Virus record (IMG/VR): IMGVR_UViG_3300036668_000241
Span: 8,329 to 72,328 of that record
Reading direction: 5' to 3' (one strand)
Source of the DNA: a virus
DNA: 64,000 nucleotides
Positions within the stretch are counted from its first letter, which is position 1. Every line of letters starts with the position of its first letter. Position numbers and translations under genes: made by a program. Positions 4,658 to 50,586 of this stretch are shown here, one piece after another. Below the pieces are notes generated by a model. It searched no databases and had not been told where the DNA came from. It saw only the letters and a list, made by a program, of their open reading frames with translations.

Positions 4658-5308
4658 TTATACACCTAACCACCATGAAGTACTTATCTTATAGTTACCT
4701 TGACCGCCTGCTGGCCCCGTTGGACCGGCATTACCTCCAGCAGCTTGAACAAACACTCCTTCAAAGTAAACATATGTAATACCAGTACCTGTGTCAAACC
4801 AAGCGTCACCGTTAGTTGCAGTATCTAAAGAAGGTTGTGTGGGGCTTGCTGTAAATTTTCCGGGAGGACCCGTTGGGCCTAAAGGTCCTGGTATGTCAGA
4901 TGCCGCACCTGTTGGCCCGAGAGGTCCTGTAGCTCCGCGAGGGCCAGTGGGTCCAATCGGTCCAGTCACTCGAGAATCAGCACCCGTAGGTCCAGTTGAG
5001 CCAGTTGGTCCTTGCGCTCCTGTTGGCCCGAGAGGTCCTGTGGAACCTCGCTCACCTTGTGATCCTGTAGCTCCAGTTGGTCCTGCTACTGTGGAATCGG
5101 GTCCAGTAGGTCCTTGAATTCCATCAGGACCTGTTGGACCGGCTCCACCTGTTGCACCAGTAGGTCCAGTAGCACCTTGTGGGCCGGTAGGACCTAAAGG
5201 AGCCTGTCGAAGAACTTGCCAGTAAGTGCCATTATAAACCCATGTGCTGCCACCAGAAGTAAACTCCTCGCCTAATTCGGCGGGAGATGGAAAGTCAATG
5301 GCGGGCAT
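4658..5308 (-). CDS. Collagen-like fibre protein
   Basis: G-P-T triplets; N-terminal AIDFP...W-Y-G-W module; GDAWFD module. Confidence 0.8.
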
Positions 5309-8141: not shown

Positions 8142-8813
8142 TTAAAGTTGAGCTTCATATTGAAACTGGACAAGAATTTTATCATTAGCACCAAAAACAA
8201 ATGGTGTCTCTGACGCTGCAGGAGCTCCTTCATCAAAAGTAGATGCTTGACTATGCATCCACATTTCTACTCTAGAATTATTGCTTTGATTAAAAATACA
8301 TGTGCCAAAATATGAAATTCCAGGTCCTTCATCTCGCATAACAACTTGACCTAAAGGTTGATAGTTATCAATCACTGCAAGGGTTGGTATTGAAAGGAAA
8401 TACGTTCCAGAGCCTCTAGAAAAACCTATAGTTCCAGCAGTTACTCTAATCTCTCCAATAATTAAAGAGCCTACAGCAATGTATCTGCCAGTAACTGCAG
8501 AGTTTCCTAGAGTTGGATTGGTAGTATTGGCAGTCCATTGGGGTGTGTAGTTCTGCCATGGAGAAGTTGTAAATGTTCCGGCGGGTCCAATTGCACCCGT
8601 TGGGCCAGTAACCGTTGAAGCTGGTCCTTGAGGACCTAAAGGTCCTGTCGGCCCTCCAACTGTGGAAGCTGGCCCGGTTGGACCTAAAGGACCTGTTGGC
8701 CCTACGGCGCTTGTTCTCACAAGTCTCCATAAAATTCCACTCCACACATATGTTTGTGTGTTGTATACGTACTGTTCCCCTATTTCAGGAGAGCTAGGAA
8801 AGTCTAATGCCAT
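8142..8813 (-). CDS. Collagen-like fibre protein with C-terminal receptor-binding-type domain
   Basis: Probable start MALDFP (ATG 8813, GGAGG upstream); GPT triplets; W..YTP.W...GRY domain. Confidence 0.75.
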   Translation of the reverse strand: MALDFPSSPEIGEQYVYNTQTYVWSGILWRLVRTSAVGPTGPLGPTGPASTVGGPTGPLGPQGPASTVTGPTGAIGPAGTFTTSPWQNYTPQWTANTTNPTLGNSAVTGRYIAVGSLIIGEIRVTAGTIGFSRGSGTYFLSIPTLAVIDNYQPLGQVVMRDEGPGISYFGTCIFNQSNNSRVEMWMHSQASTFDEGAPAASETPFVFGANDKILVQFQYEAQL

Positions 8814-31462: not shown

Positions 31463-32240
31463 AAATTGCTTGCGGGTAACGATCTAACACAGGACTTTTC
31501 TTTTTAGCAATAGTAAATATGTTGTCTCCTGTATGTGTAATATTAAAACCAGCCGCATTCAGCCTTGCCACAACAGAAGGCATAGAATCTTCAAAACAAT
31601 CTTCTGTCCAGATACTCCCATCAAAACCCGCAGCTTTGACTACTTGCATAAGAGAATGTATAGAGTACTCATAGTTATGCCTGTACGGAGACCTATTAGT
31701 GTGGTACTGCATATAAAAGTATGGTTCTAGTCCGGACATCATTTTTGTAAGTCCTCGAGAACTAACCACATTTGGAGTTGTTAATAGCAAGCTTCCTTTA
31801 GGCTTTAGTACTCTATTAACTTCAGACATCATAAACATTGGATCAATATCCATGTGCTCAATTACTTCTGAACAAATAACCCAATCGTATGTTTTATCTT
31901 TTACTGGAATCTCATCAGACTCTAAATCAATAGCAAAAGCCGTAAAACTCCCTGAGTAGCTATGTATTGCTATTTCGTAGGTATGCACTGTTTCTTTGTT
32001 CATATCAAAATTAGTAACATCTATTGTAACTTTTGGTAAAAGAGCTTGAATTGCAAGAGTAATTACTCCACCAGTTCCTAATTCCAGGATACGACCTTTA
32101 GGTTTTTGATCAAGAAGGACCTGTAAAGTTCTTGCAATTCTCCTTGTGTGAGTTATATGGTAAGTATCTTCGGGTCTAATAAGTTCTTTCAGAACTTCTG
32201 CGACAGCAGGATAGATGTCTGTATACGGTCCGGTAAACAT
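31449..32240 (-). CDS. Class I SAM-dependent methyltransferase (type 11-like)
   Basis: ILELGTG, YDWVICSEVIEH, RVLKPKG.LLLTTPN; probable start MFTGP. Confidence 0.85.
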   Translation of the reverse strand: MFTGPYTDIYPAVAEVLKELIRPEDTYHITHTRRIARTLQVLLDQKPKGRILELGTGGVITLAIQALLPKVTIDVTNFDMNKETVHTYEIAIHSYSGSFTAFAIDLESDEIPVKDKTYDWVICSEVIEHMDIDPMFMMSEVNRVLKPKGSLLLTTPNVVSSRGLTKMMSGLEPYFYMQYHTNRSPYRHNYEYSIHSLMQVVKAAGFDGSIWTEDCFEDSMPSVVARLNAAGFNITHTGDNIFTIAKKKSPVLDRYPQAIYEKD

Positions 32241-32312
32241 AACTGCATTATGCCACAGAAAGGAAATTATCGGGCCCCCTTGCGGACATGTGATATTATT
32301 TATGAGATACAT

Positions 32313-32396
32313 GCCAGAGTCCCCTAGTGGCCGATGGGACCGATTTTGTAAGTCGGTACAAAAACAACGCAGGTTCGAATCCTGCCTCTGGCTCCA
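32313..32396 (+). tRNA. tRNA-Thr(TGT) with long variable loop
   Basis: Acceptor GCCAGAG/CTCTGGC, T discriminator + CCA, anticodon arm CCGAT-TTTGTAA-GTCGG, T arm GCAGG-TTCGAAT-CCTGC; extended -10 TGATATTAT upstream. Confidence 0.8.
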
Positions 32397-32468
32397 AGTA
32401 CATACAAGGCATTAAACAAGAATGGAAAGAGAAAATACAGAGCCGGGGGCTAAGGGGGCATATAAACC

Positions 32469-32683
32469 AAAAACCCCCTTGCGGAGGTTAGTGGGGTGAA
32501 TATCCGGGTTGCTTTTTACCGGAACGGCCTAGCCAGCAATCCATAGGTTTATGTACCGCTGTAGCCGATCTACCGTTTACTCCGCTAAGAGAAAGACCGC
32601 TAAGTCCCGATAGTGCGTTTCTCGCCCCTACTGGCACAGAGCTTGATTCCGCCATATTCCACTCGGACCGTCGCCCTTATGTT
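32469..32683 (-). ncRNA. Candidate ~215-nt highly structured non-coding RNA
   Basis: Extended -10 TGCTACTAT (32698-32690), at least six stems, terminator AACCTCC-GCAA-GGGGGTT-TTT. Confidence 0.6.
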
Positions 32684-32787
32684 GCGAGAATAGTAGCACA
32701 GATACTTAATAATTAATACACGGAGGTATATTCTTATTGTCCTTACACGAATTAGGTGTAAAATACAAGTAATCAAAGGAGTTATTA

Positions 32788-33084
32788 ATGAAGTGTGAAA
32801 TTTGCTATTGGGCCGAAATGCCTGACAGTGTTCCATCTATGTCTAGGCATATTGGTACATATCATCAAGACATTGTTCCAGATCAAGTAATTGTATGGAA
32901 GAACTCAGAAATGATTCTTGTTGAAAAGTACAATGGAAAAGATCAACTTATTAATGTCTATGTACAAAAAGTTGTTCCTTCTCCTAAAGAAAAGCCACTT
33001 TTTGATTATGTCCCTCTAGAAACGGAAACTGTTAAAGACTTTGAAGACACTCCCACTGTTATTGATCTAGACGAATTACCTTAA
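32788..33084 (+). CDS. Hypothetical protein with N-terminal C2H2-like motif
   Basis: CEIC...RHI...H; AAGGAG RBS. Confidence 0.6.
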   Translation: MKCEICYWAEMPDSVPSMSRHIGTYHQDIVPDQVIVWKNSEMILVEKYNGKDQLINVYVQKVVPSPKEKPLFDYVPLETETVKDFEDTPTVIDLDELP

Positions 33085-33112: not shown

Positions 33113-33161
33113 GGCTGACGCAGAAGGATTCGAACCTTCAACCATCCGATTAACAGTCTGA
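33113..33161 (-). pseudogene. 3' half of tRNA-Asn(GTT)
   Basis: TCAGA-CTGTTAA-TCGGA, T arm GAAGG-TTCGAAT-CCTTC, acceptor strand TGCGTCA + G; no D arm or 5' acceptor strand upstream. Confidence 0.7.
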
Positions 33162-34352: not shown

Positions 34353-34486
34353 TAGATATGATGTCCTTCTATTTCGTTGGGAGCCTGCTTTAGTGGAGAG
34401 GTAGAGTATTCACATCTCATACAGATGTCTATACCTCTCCACACCTCAATGTCGTGACCTTGAGCGCAAGGATTTTCTTTAGGCAT
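34352..34486 (-). CDS. Small hypothetical protein (44 aa)
   Basis: MPKENPCAQGH...CMRC; coupled to flanking genes. Confidence 0.45.
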   Translation of the reverse strand: MPKENPCAQGHDIEVWRGIDICMRCEYSTSPLKQAPNEIEGHHI

Positions 34487-37400
34487 TTTTCTTTTCTTTA
34501 GCAATATCCGTAATCATTCTAACCTCGCAACTATCCGTGCTACAGAAAGCTTCTCCGATAGCATCAGATGCCATACCTGCGTAGACTCCCGCAAAGTCAA
34601 TCTGAAAGAGTTTCATTGTGTAGTCGTTATACTCTTCCTCAGTGATTTGACCGTAGGGCATCTGGGGATAAGTATCGTTTCCTTGGGGTAGGAATGAAAC
34701 TGTCTTCATCTGACCGTCATACATATGAAGAACAGATCCGACATGCTTGCTTTCTGTCTCTGCATTAAACGAAATCGTAACACTAACAGAGTTGTCAGAC
34801 CAGTATCGCTGTGCTTGTGCTGCTAGTGCCATTTTCTCGAAGATGGTAACTTCTTTGTCAGACCTAGATGAGTTTGAAGCAATTGGAAAGTAAACAACGG
34901 AGGTAGTGTCTGGAGATTCGAACGCTGGTTCGACCCGGTAATTAGCCATCTTGAATAGAGGAAGCATCGGATCACTGTTAGCGAAGCGAATCGTGCGCAG
35001 AAAATACTTACCACCGGGAGTCCAATGTACACCAGGGGACTCACCAGCAAGAATAGAAACTGTTCCCGAAGGCTTAACGGTTGTTGTTTTAATCGACTCC
35101 CGAATCCCAAGCCATTCCGAGTAGATGGTGTCGTAATATTTGATAGTTCCGTATCCTTCATCCATCCATGTTCTCAGAGTTGGGAGACCCTGATTATCTG
35201 CAAAGTCTGCTACGCCCGACATTGACGCTCCAATACGACGGTTACGCTGCATGATTGCGTTGGTCTCTTCCCAGTGGGTGGGGAGGAGAGTGACAGTCTT
35301 AGCGTAGAGATAAGCAAACTTTAAAGTGCGCTTGTAGTCTTCTAGAGTGTCGTGCCGATTTAGGTAAGTCTCTACAAGGGTGCACATCTCGAAGGACTCA
35401 AGAGATTGTTCGGCGCAATTGTGAACGTACAGCCCATTGGCATCAAAAGCGTGAACTTTCTCTACGGTGACATCATAAACCGATGCAGTTCCAAAAGGAG
35501 TCAATGACTTGAACGTTGCATAAAATGGCTTAGTGTATACGGCCTTGCTTCGGAGACTGTTGATACGAAACCACTTATCACTCTTCTCTAAATCACAAAA
35601 GCCGATGCGATCCATATACCTATGAGCACTCTGCGCTGAAATCATTAGTCGCCAAGTTGCCTTGGTAGCATAAATTTGATAGTCGCCTGTGCCATTATTC
35701 TTTGGTAGAGACATTTCGCCTGCGGTTCGGTTCATTGCTACGGTTGATTGAATGCCTAACCGCAAGAGCATACGCTGGACCCGCTTAAGTTGCTCTTTAT
35801 CAGACTGATGTAGACGAATACTTACGCCCTTCTCTAGGTTTCCTTCTACTGAACCGTCAGCATCAAATGCGCCACGGAGGAACCCGACGTAAAACTCTGA
35901 AGACATCTGCTCAAGATCGTCTGTAATCTTCTTAGATCCCGGGCTCATACCTACAGAGTCAGCAAGATGTGCAATAGATGCACTCTTCAATCTATACTCA
36001 TTCCGTCCCGGAACTTCCATAAATCCCTGCCAGTCAGACCTGTGTGAAAGTGTAGATGCTGCTGTAAAGACTGCTTCTTTGACCTCTGGGTGGTCGCCCC
36101 AGACACTTAGCACAGCACTTTTATTGTTGAAAGTTCCGTCTCCCCAGAGTTGACCAATAAGATATCCCTCTTGTTCGGAGCCAGCACCTCCCCACACACT
36201 TAATGTTCCATGATCGTGCAGGACAATCTTATCTTCGTGAGTAAGATTTCCCGCTTCTACCCACCCACGTTGGGTCATCACTTGGTGGTTGTCTGTGATC
36301 CTAAGTGTGTGTCCCTCTACCGTTGTCAAATCAAAGACCTGACGATCATGGTCTGTAAGGAAGAATCCATCTGACTCGGTTCGATACTTCTCTCCATCTA
36401 CAATCGCTACGAACGGGGTGCCAACCAAGTCGCGCACCTGCCTCGGACCATCTTCAGTCAATACCCACGAATCATCAGTGATGCAAGGGTTGTAGCCTAC
36501 GACGCGATGATCTTTGTTATTTGGTGCATCTGCAAGACGACCGTACGCACGCGACACATCCATCCACAAAACTCCGGGCTCACCGTTGCGAACTACTCCA
36601 TCAAGAATTGGAGATAAGTCTTCTCCAACTTTTACATCTACTGAGTTGTTAGACATCCAGCCAAACTCTTGACGATCTGCTGCAGGTCCAGGAGTGAACT
36701 TACCTTTGTCATCATAGGTTCCATAATTCTTGAGGTTCAAAAACTCTTCGTCATCAATAGAACCAATGAGAAGTTCGGCTGAGCGACGCACGTTACCTGA
36801 GACAACGCAGACGCCAATCATATTTCCAATATTGGCAATGTCTGTTCGAGTTACCATTTCGCCACCTCTACCACTAAACAACTTAGTAATATGGTTGTGT
36901 AGTTTTTCTAATGGCTGATGTCCCGCTGCGGTCCCACCAAAAATCTTAATTGGTACGCCTGCAGGACGGATTAATGAGTAGTCAAACTTCACTGATTTTT
37001 GATCTGACTTAAGGTAAGAGTTAATTTGCATGGTCAAAGATTCAACCCAACCCTCTCGGGTATCAGGAATCTCATATACAACTGACTCTTCTAATGGATT
37101 GTAGATATTGAAGTTTTTGTCAGCACCCTTATTGTCGAAACCAACGCCAACGCCAAGCATGGAAGCTTCCATAAGATATGCAAATGGTTTTGCTGGATTG
37201 TTCTTGGTCATTTCCATGCTACTAACAAAGGCACAGTTTTGAAGGGCTGCGCTATTGCGCTGCTCATTTACAAGACGAGTTCCCATAACCCAAAGACCTC
37301 TGCCAGGTGGAGTCCACTTCAGATTAAAGAGACGGTCAAAACCTTCTTTGGCTGATGATTGAGCCTTCTGGTCATTCCACGGTAAACGATTAGTTTTGCA

Positions 37401-37619
37401 GTGATCTTTTTGAAGAGAGTACATGCCATTGATGACACGCTCACATACATCTGTCCACGTCTCTTTAGTGCCGTCTTCTTTGATCCTTGAGTAAGTTCTT
37501 AAGAATGTAATTTCCCCAACAGAGTTGCCTCCTGCGTCTCTATAACCAAACGGTGCTTTCTTATCTGCATAAGTAGCAACAAAGTCTTCAGAAAGCCGAA
37601 AAGAAAATAAAAGTGACAC
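34479..37619 (-). CDS. nrdJ: Class II (adenosylcobalamin-dependent) ribonucleotide reductase, intein-containing
   Basis: RTYSR, PPGRGLW, NCAF, GNVRRSA, NP/CAEQ, TVKPSGT motifs. Confidence 0.93.
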   Translation of the reverse strand: MSLLFSFRLSEDFVATYADKKAPFGYRDAGGNSVGEITFLRTYSRIKEDGTKETWTDVCERVINGMYSLQKDHCKTNRLPWNDQKAQSSAKEGFDRLFNLKWTPPGRGLWVMGTRLVNEQRNSAALQNCAFVSSMEMTKNNPAKPFAYLMEASMLGVGVGFDNKGADKNFNIYNPLEESVVYEIPDTREGWVESLTMQINSYLKSDQKSVKFDYSLIRPAGVPIKIFGGTAAGHQPLEKLHNHITKLFSGRGGEMVTRTDIANIGNMIGVCVVSGNVRRSAELLIGSIDDEEFLNLKNYGTYDDKGKFTPGPAADRQEFGWMSNNSVDVKVGEDLSPILDGVVRNGEPGVLWMDVSRAYGRLADAPNNKDHRVVGYNPCITDDSWVLTEDGPRQVRDLVGTPFVAIVDGEKYRTESDGFFLTDHDRQVFDLTTVEGHTLRITDNHQVMTQRGWVEAGNLTHEDKIVLHDHGTLSVWGGAGSEQEGYLIGQLWGDGTFNNKSAVLSVWGDHPEVKEAVFTAASTLSHRSDWQGFMEVPGRNEYRLKSASIAHLADSVGMSPGSKKITDDLEQMSSEFYVGFLRGAFDADGSVEGNLEKGVSIRLHQSDKEQLKRVQRMLLRLGIQSTVAMNRTAGEMSLPKNNGTGDYQIYATKATWRLMISAQSAHRYMDRIGFCDLEKSDKWFRINSLRSKAVYTKPFYATFKSLTPFGTASVYDVTVEKVHAFDANGLYVHNCAEQSLESFEMCTLVETYLNRHDTLEDYKRTLKFAYLYAKTVTLLPTHWEETNAIMQRNRRIGASMSGVADFADNQGLPTLRTWMDEGYGTIKYYDTIYSEWLGIRESIKTTTVKPSGTVSILAGESPGVHWTPGGKYFLRTIRFANSDPMLPLFKMANYRVEPAFESPDTTSVVYFPIASNSSRSDKEVTIFEKMALAAQAQRYWSDNSVSVTISFNAETESKHVGSVLHMYDGQMKTVSFLPQGNDTYPQMPYGQITEEEYNDYTMKLFQIDFAGVYAGMASDAIGEAFCSTDSCEVRMITDIAKEKKNA
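35418..36485 (-). mobile_element. Intein (356 aa) with LAGLIDADG homing endonuclease
   Basis: Starts CITDDSWV, block B TDNHQV, YLIGQLWGDG and FLRGAFDADG, ends VYDVTV...VHN before Cys. Confidence 0.93.
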
Positions 37620-50440: not shown

Positions 50441-50514
50441 GGGGCGGTAGCTCAGCTGGTTAGAGCCCCGAACTCATAATTCGGTCGTCGTCGGTTCGAG
50501 CCCGACCCGCCCCA
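50441..50514 (+). tRNA. tRNA with CAT anticodon (probably Ile2, otherwise elongator Met)
   Basis: GGGGCGG/CCGCCCC acceptor, GCTC/GAGC D arm, CCGAA-CTCATAA-TTCGG, GTCGG-TTCGAGC-CCGAC; CCA not encoded. Confidence 0.9.
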
Positions 50515-50586
50515 CCCGTGTCTCTTAGTAGCAAAACGAATATACTTAAAAAGACAAAACGACAAACTACGATTGGAAATCCAATT

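Follow-up and report, generated by a model that had tools for sequence, protein, structure and literature searches.

The locus considered here raises the question whether a short GC-rich stretch lying beside tRNA genes of a virus is a gene for a structured RNA and, if so, to which family the RNA belongs and how it could act. The stretch is read on the minus strand of the window, i.e. the whole 64,000 nt of DNA that were analyzed (positions 8,329 to 72,328 of the IMG/VR virus record IMGVR_UViG_3300036668_000241), between 32698 and 32462. A first-pass annotation, made by eye from the letters of the window, had proposed a stand-alone structured RNA of about 215 nt, converging on tRNA-Thr and possibly representing a novel phage class. 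Follow-up by covariance models, folding, metagenome contigs and comparison with known RNAs indicates that the element is most likely a discrete, self-contained gene for a folded RNA, with a predicted transcript of ~218 nt, whose core is probably a remote and reduced relative of the manA RNAs (Rfam model RF01745).

Predicted boundaries of the RNA gene

The gene was delimited by the following features, in which L100, L101 and L102 denote three contigs found in one metagenome scan.

32698-32690, minus strand: extended -10 box TGCTACTAT, read from the sequence, without a good -35 box in the window
32466-32683, minus strand: predicted transcript of ~218 nt, its start placed by the -10 spacing and a conservation boundary, its end by the terminator T-run
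32493-32678, minus strand: manA-like core of 186 nt, GC 0.54, from the RF01745 alignment, identical in L100, L101 and L102
32462-32489, minus strand: intrinsic terminator with a 7-bp stem and a GCAA loop, then UUUUUGGUUUAU, from a terminator scan

In minus-strand order, TGCTACTAT is followed by a 6-nt spacer, the GC-rich stretch, AACCUCCGCAAGGGGGUU and then UUUGGUUUAU. The GC content of the core contrasts with 0.36-0.39 in the surrounding 2-kb bins, and promoter and terminator bracket exactly this GC-rich part. At the downstream end, the terminator scan called AACCTCCGCAAGGGGGTT plus T-run at 32489-32472 (minus strand), with a folding energy of -10 kcal/mol (z -2.39); the seven pairs, the GCAA loop and the T-run are those of a Rho-independent terminator. 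At the upstream end, the promoter of the first-pass annotation held in part: the extended -10 box is present, whereas a sigma-70 scan called no promoter at 32700, the -35 box being absent there. L100 and L102 carry TTGACA-N18-TAGGAT at the position equivalent to the -10 box of the window.

The start of the RNA was placed by comparison of the four copies (window, L100, L101 and L102). Several positions of the 6-nt spacer between the -10 box and ~32683 vary among them, and the next ~230 nt, from the predicted start through the terminator, show zero differences, a sharp conservation boundary that places the functional start near 32683. Transcription would thus begin ~7 nt after the -10 box and end at the GCAA-capped terminator. 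In this respect the original proposal of a discrete structured RNA beside tRNA genes was supported: the gene is non-coding, spans ~215-220 nt and has a -10 box and a terminator to itself. That the element is more than a chance arrangement follows from the sharp boundary at the predicted start, the identical module in four contexts and the covariance-model match described below; the case does not rest on folding energy.

All sequence elements that had been listed by eye were found on the minus strand, including TGCTACTAT at 32698-32690 and the GCAA-capped terminator. The stems GUCCGA/UCGGGAC, UGGC/GCCA, UAGGGGCG-AGAAA-CGCACUA, AGCGGUCU/AGGCCGUU and CUCU-UAGC-GGAG are present as sequence, as are the long hairpin CAGCGGU..AUUGCUG and UCCGG..CCGGA. 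As a whole fold, the drawing was not confirmed: CUCU-UAGC-GGAG, the long hairpin, UCCGG..CCGGA and the terminator agree with the homology-based fold set out in the next section; the long-range stems GUCCGA/UCGGGAC and AGCGGUCU/AGGCCGUU conflict with it.

Probable relationship to manA

manA has been an orphan family, classed as cis-regulatory, since 2010; the paper of that year (Weinberg 2010, PMC2864571) put it forward as a possible riboswitch, and two papers describe it as a 5'-untranslated-region element of marine cyanophages and Photobacterium (PMC2864571, PMC9964418). In the literature searched, no ligand for any manA RNA was found, and a terminator-ended, tRNA-linked, reduced manA in actinophage-type phages was not described.

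A 701-nt slice around the locus was searched against Rfam with lax Infernal filters. RF01745 aligned end to end (model positions 1-192) to 32678-32493 with 39.1 bits and an E-value of 1.6e-8, or ~1.5e-6 when rescaled by us to the whole window, and was the sole non-tRNA Rfam match below E 1 in the slice. This full-length match, below the curated cut-off of 55.2 bits, speaks against the suggested novel class. The exclusion of tmRNA, RNase P and SRP in the first-pass annotation held: these, and also GOLLD and ROOL, gave no Rfam match at the gathering threshold or at E up to 10, and ARAGORN found no tmRNA in the window. The comparison it had drawn with GOLLD and ROOL, which are phage-borne, often located near tRNA genes and several times longer than the window RNA, accordingly gained no support from Rfam.

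The alignment divides the core into the following parts, named after their canonical counterparts.

32665-32676, minus strand: P1 hairpin GGGC-GACG-GUCC, from the RF01745 alignment; some canonical copies carry GGGGCGACGGTCTC here
32655-32659, minus strand: pseudoknot 5' strand GAAUA, pairing 5/5 with 32498-32502
32639-32654, minus strand: conserved junction strand UGGCGGAAUCAAGCUC, canonical form UGACUGAAUAAACUU
32621-32638, minus strand: hairpin in the canonical P3 place, loop AGUAGG, one G-A mismatch, from the RF01745 alignment
32571-32612, minus strand: multi-branch stem with hairpins GAC-UUAGCG-GUC and CUCU-UAGC-GGAG, from the RF01745 alignment
32525-32567, minus strand: long irregular hairpin in the canonical P8 place, loop AACC, from the alignment and the centroid fold
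32503-32523, minus strand: hairpin UCCGG-UAAAAAGCAAC-CCGGA in the canonical P9 place, 11-nt loop, matching GGUAnAnAGnAAnCC
32498-32502, minus strand: pseudoknot 3' strand UAUUC, with the conserved ACC(CC) tail next to it at 32493-32497

Beyond its score, the alignment has several further properties. The columns of the pseudoknot are not counted as pairs by the covariance model; in the window they hold GAAUA and UAUUC, which pair 5/5 in Watson-Crick fashion. The probability of this by chance is ~0.001 when Watson-Crick pairs alone count and ~0.007 when G-U is included as well. Of the single-stranded segments, the two that are most conserved keep 11/15 and 11/12 of the canonical invariant letters, UG.C.GAAU.AA.CU and GGUA.A.AG.AA.CC + 7 nt + CACC being present in the window RNA. 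In the former, 11/15 invariant letters of the canonical junction strand UGaCUGAAUAAaCUU are kept and one base is inserted (our count); in the latter, the specified letters of the last hairpin's loop GGUAnACAGnAAnCC + 7 nt + CACC are kept apart from the single change ACAG to AAAG, the canonical counterpart of this P9-like loop region being GGUAcACAGgAAuCC. Three of the five pairs of the P9-like hairpin differ from the Rfam consensus in both bases, with pairing preserved. A pattern of the letters shared by window and consensus retrieved 48 IMG/VR stretches, all of them typical manA by inspection.

The reverse search was performed with R1, a single-sequence model of the window RNA to which the manA-type pairs had been assigned (46, all of them standard). 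This test is not independent, since the imposed structure was derived from the manA alignment. At default filters, R1 matched only itself in 672 kb. With filters off, its best match lay exactly on the manA element in 12/12 canonical loci, at scores from 23.0 down to 6.7 bits (E below 0.01 in 5/12), while controls of unrelated or chance-pattern phage DNA reached at most 8.6 bits in 96.6 kb and, in a second set of 73.8 kb, 8.3 bits apart from the three identical copies; 7 of the 12 canonical scores were above the control maximum. An R1-guided alignment of the canonical copies was set aside, its 5' half being too uneven for the counting of pairs, and the fold that RNAalifold proposed for 26 canonical copies did not resemble the Rfam structure, UGGU being paired in it with ACCA within one molecule.

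The window RNA and canonical manA are similar in size (a core of 186 nt for 192 model positions). Both have a 5' hairpin with a GACG-type loop, a pseudoknot between the 3' end and the strand behind P1, a multi-branch stem, a long hairpin, a hairpin with the 11-nt loop UA.A.AG.AA, an ACC tail and a promoter directly upstream, and the junction strand UG.C.GAAU.AA.CU is largely retained; some canonical members (L069 and L073) likewise have tRNA-Thr(UGU) as a neighbor. The window RNA differs in score, 39 bits against the 171-187 bits obtained with Rfam for 13/13 canonical loci (12 of the 26 aligned copies and L073). The third canonical hairpin of the multi-branch stem, which bears the ACCA loop, is absent, the loop GUGGUG is changed to UUAGCG, a GNRA-type loop to UAGC, and CUGUAG/UACAG are replaced by AACC and UAAAAAG. 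The pseudoknot reads GAAUA/UAUUC where canonical copies have GGGAG/CUCCC, the RNA is followed by a terminator and then a tRNA gene or its remnant where canonical manA precedes an open reading frame (ORF), and the phage is an actinophage-like one from salt lakes, as opposed to the marine T4-like cyanophages, marine metagenomes and gamma-proteobacteria/Photobacterium of manA.

The lost elements bear on assembly. According to a recent preprint, manA RNAs assemble in vitro into 60-mer cages, decamers and octamers; in the pentamers it describes, the molecules are joined through the kissing loops L5-L7' and L8-L9' or through L3-L8' together with a GNRA-receptor contact (10.64898/2026.07.01.735769). 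In canonical manA, UGGU (within loop GUGGUG) is complementary to ACCA and CUGUA to UACAG, and both complementarities are invariant in 26/26 copies; we infer that they correspond to the reported L5-L7' and L8-L9' contacts, because the GNRA-capped hairpin becomes L6 when the hairpins are counted in order. By this tentative mapping of L3 to L9, which is our own, the core helices appear to be shared between the cage-forming RNAs and the window RNA, and neither canonical loop-loop complementarity exists in the latter. The sole one seen there is a candidate, UAGG of the P3-like loop with CCUA of the P8-like loop plus two stem bases.

A number of results weigh against the reading of a structured manA relative. 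The score of 39.1 bits does not reach the Rfam gathering cut-off, at which the window yields only its two tRNAs, so that a check against Rfam gives no match at the curated cut-off and a clear one below it; the match was also lost in an E-value scan of all 64 kb with stricter filters. A sequence-only profile of the 26 canonical copies did not find the locus at E up to 100, MAFFT misaligns or shifts the 5' half of the window RNA relative to canonical copies, and the alignment lacks one canonical hairpin and shows changes in several conserved loops. The minimum free energy of the 236-nt stretch, -74.7 kcal/mol, is no better than that of shuffled sequences (-72.4 +/- 4.45 kcal/mol, z -0.52; 55/200 shuffles fold as well). 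Compared with the computed optimum of -58.1 kcal/mol, the manA-type fold has -30.5 kcal/mol and the by-eye fold, approximately coded, ~-31.7 kcal/mol. Covariation was nil, all four copies being identical, and natural variants amounted to three substitutions, two of which fit the manA-type and the optimum folds alike and one of which breaks a pair. The double change 32610 A>G and 32611 T>C (runs X11 and X14) changes an A-U pair to G-U and a G-U pair to C-G in the outer stem of the multi-branch element, keeping both pairs, yet the optimum fold fits equally well; 32626 C>T (run X14), G>A at position 53 of the RNA, disrupts the pair that closes the loop of the P3-like hairpin. In one run, substitutions numbered 3/186 nt in the RNA and 14/495 nt at 31900-32394, mostly methyltransferase gene, which is not clearly different.

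The sub-threshold score and the failure of sequence-only searches, the missing hairpin and both missing pairs of presumed kissing loops, a host range, habitat and gene layout unlike those of all described manA RNAs, and a reverse search that reused the manA architecture would also suit a new RNA class unrelated to manA, the match then reflecting similar size, a similar hairpin layout and a few chance motifs. We regard this as unlikely in view of the E-value even after scaling to the window, the unscored pseudoknot, the invariant letters retained in both single-stranded segments and the tRNA-Thr(UGU) adjacency common to the window RNA and some canonical manA. That the window RNA is a true manA relative, remote and reduced, was given a chance of about three in four. 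Such a relative, with a gene of its own, terminator-ended, beside tRNA-Thr and in another phage lineage and habitat, would show that the Rfam cut-off and default filters hide distant members of the family; having lost the loop pairs presumed to hold the cages together, it would offer a natural comparison for which parts of the fold carry function.

A module beside tRNA-Thr

The other contigs also give the history of the neighboring tRNA gene. In 3/3 of them, an intact co-oriented tRNA-Thr(UGU) begins 12 nt past the T-run, followed in L101 and L102 by the methyltransferase gene, and no convincing promoter lies between RNA and tRNA in these two. The corresponding part of the window reads as follows.

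32451-32459, minus strand: 9-nt remnant GCCCCCTTA from the start of an older, co-oriented tRNA-Thr(UGU) gene, by comparison with L100, L101 and L102
32287-32450: 164-nt insert replacing the middle of the older tRNA gene and carrying a plus-strand tRNA-Thr(UGU)
32313-32396, plus strand: convergent tRNA-Thr(UGU), from ARAGORN and Rfam
32274-32286, minus strand: last 13 nt TCCGCAAGGGGGC of the older tRNA-Thr gene, by comparison with L100, L101 and L102
31449-32267, minus strand: methyltransferase gene following the tRNA-Thr remnant

The inserted plus-strand gene is 84 nt long with ~9 extra bases in the variable region, and differs from the older one. In run X3, one contig passes directly from 32286 to 32451, and contigs of run X2 span the window's own junctions. 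Since the RNA stands before an intact co-oriented tRNA in all three other contigs, the convergent tRNA of the window is a derived state produced by later insertion. The convergence on tRNA-Thr that had been described is therefore real in the window and secondary in origin; originally, the RNA would have lain 12 nt upstream of tRNA-Thr(UGU), as it does in the other contigs. The window RNA is intact although the tRNA downstream of it was destroyed. Two sub-threshold matches to the Plastid-ycf2 5UTR model (44.2 and 15.6 bits; 50441-50515 and 32313-32394, minus strand) lie exactly antisense to two tRNA genes and are most likely model artefacts.

The RNA behaves as a module. Upstream, L101 has the flank of the window, and L100 and L102 share a different one. 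Gene order in L100 and the window is the same (ribonucleotide reductase, GNAT, RNA, tRNA-Thr, methyltransferase), with protein identities of 34% for GNAT and 63% for the methyltransferase against 100% for the RNA. L102 combines an L100-type left flank with a window-type right flank and looks recombinant. Contig depth over the RNA was 2-5 times that of the flanks in 3/4 runs (X2, X3 and X14, not X11), consistent with several co-occurring genotypes that share the module. A 5'-truncated tRNA-Asn(GUU) remnant occupies 33113-33158 (minus strand), the full gene being present in L101 at 1154-1227, and explains short megablast matches to tRNA-Asn of Gordonia phages. Both module ends lie inside tRNA genes, which suggests recombination at tRNA genes; the element may thus be a small, independently transcribed structured-RNA gene that travels as a mobile module among mosaic salt-lake phages. 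Two further genes of this region were recorded. A 98-aa ORF (32788-33084, plus strand), divergent from the RNA promoter and equipped with a good ribosome-binding site, is without Pfam or PHROG match and occurs in L101 but is absent from L100 and L102. The ribonucleotide reductase gene encodes a B12-dependent (class II) enzyme of 1046 aa (34479-37619, minus strand) that contains an intein with a LAGLIDADG domain; its homologues in L100 and L102 have 647 aa and no intein domain.

Identity across contexts points to recent exchange and is not evidence of selection, a point to be held against a functional RNA. Identical copies, divergent flanks and module ends in tRNA genes could then mean that nothing more than a recent recombination module is present, or a 55-aa gene (32488-32655), conserved because it is young. 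This is very improbable on several counts. Neither the 55-aa nor the 78-aa minus-strand frame over the RNA matched a Pfam or PHROG family. The 55-aa frame is without a clear ribosome-binding site, and the 78-aa frame is impossible in L100 and L102 because the sequence upstream of 32700 differs there. The three natural substitutions change the amino acid in whichever frame they fall; promoter and terminator bracket exactly the GC-rich core, and the covariance-model match argues for an RNA.

Searches for further variants of the RNA returned nothing beyond these copies. By blastn, no match was obtained in 50,697 phage records. A strict pattern gave 0 matches in IMG/VR and 0 in GTDB genomes, and looser patterns gave chance matches only, one of them within a coding region of a Blastocatellales metagenome-assembled genome; in three IMG/VR stretches from the looser patterns, R1 produced local matches of at most 8.3 bits. 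Among 51 loci encoding the neighboring methyltransferase, blastn, nhmmer and R1 at default filters detected nothing, R1 with filters off, run on 11 of these loci, stayed at or below 8.6 bits, and the whole records of 50 of the 51 held 0 matches. In two of these loci (L005 and L016), the syntenic gap is occupied by an ORF of 159 or 202 aa. A profile search with RF01745 of the window's own genome likewise gave nothing, the prefilter having passed no candidates.

Release and possible action of the RNA

The genomic contexts of canonical manA were compared with that of the window RNA. An ORF starts 15-71 nt downstream in 30/33 canonical contexts, and a terminator-like hairpin with T-run occurs within 90 nt in 0/33. 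A near-consensus sigma-70 promoter was found in 32/35 distinct upstream contexts, of which one, L078, is cut by the contig end and unreliable. L069 and L073 are among the clear exceptions, with a tRNA ahead of manA: at 1634-1899 and 4696-4961, respectively, a canonical manA (177 and 174 bits) starts 1 nt past a tRNA-Thr(UGU) that ends a tRNA array, has no promoter of its own and is followed by an ORF 62-71 nt downstream. The window RNA has no protein gene to lead, because tRNA-Thr is the next feature in all three other contigs.

On this basis it is proposed, with a probability of roughly 0.55, that the gene yields a free, stable RNA of ~218 nt that acts in trans. Release as a discrete stable molecule would be achieved by termination or, alternatively, by RNase P, which would cleave a precursor read through from the RNA into the tRNA while the hairpin shields the 3' end so formed. 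The 186-nt core, reduced by one peripheral hairpin and both loop-loop complementarities, would then work as a folded particle and not as a switch for a protein gene. A comparable layout is known from phage T4, the tRNA cluster of which encodes small stable RNAs, species 1 and 2, that are made together with the tRNAs. These are likewise non-tRNA phage RNAs of 100-200 nt in or next to a tRNA cluster and are presumably freed by tRNA-processing enzymes; the analogy is one of layout only.

Against action in trans, a promoterless tRNA behind a terminator fits a regulated or leaky terminator, which would suit a role in cis. In that case the RNA would be an attenuator or riboswitch, the core sensing a ligand or condition and controlling read-through of the terminator into an operon of tRNA-Thr and methyltransferase. 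The riboswitch candidacy proposed for manA (PMC2864571) would fit, as would the terminator directly after an aptamer-like core and, in L101 and L102, the co-oriented tRNA-Thr and methyltransferase, where the tRNA depends on read-through; in principle, CCCC at 32493-32496 could also form pairs with GGGGG of the terminator. This pairing would have 4-5 bp across a 14-nt loop, as against the 7-bp GCAA-capped stem, and the 3' domain folds as the P9-like hairpin plus terminator, with no anti-terminator in the optimum or the centroid. The window RNA is moreover unchanged after the downstream tRNA was destroyed and replaced by a gene on the opposite strand, and the literature searched names no ligand for manA. 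A cis-acting switch was for these reasons judged improbable, though somewhat less so than a class unrelated to manA, and a stable RNA acting in trans is preferred.

A more far-reaching and doubtful extension of the trans-acting reading is that manA-type RNAs at large form a broad superfamily of trans-acting phage RNAs, linked to tRNAs, freed by tRNA-processing enzymes and distinct from riboswitches, of which the window RNA would represent the minimal core without kissing loops. Such a minimal core would either assemble through rewired contacts, e.g. UAGG/CCUA, or act as a monomer, and the role of the conserved core would be separable from cage formation.

The phage itself points away from the known hosts of manA. 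The primase-helicase of the phage shares 69% identity, across 67% of the protein, with that of the metagenome-assembled Actinomycetia phage DSL-LC01 and ~50% identity with those of Microbacterium phages, and DSL-LC01 also carries the sole catalogued homologue of the methyltransferase; its whole record gave 0 matches to the RNA. The nearest catalogued relatives of the phage are thus actinophages and not cyanophages, and an early cyanophage reading, prompted by a weak DUF1392 match and the link to manA, was dropped for this reason. Phage DNA was found in salt-lake metagenomes, and none of the 22 runs carrying it is an RNA run. The phage has several tRNA genes and tRNA remnants, and further encodes an RNA ligase (PF09414; 39452-40876, minus strand), which could have a role in tRNA repair.

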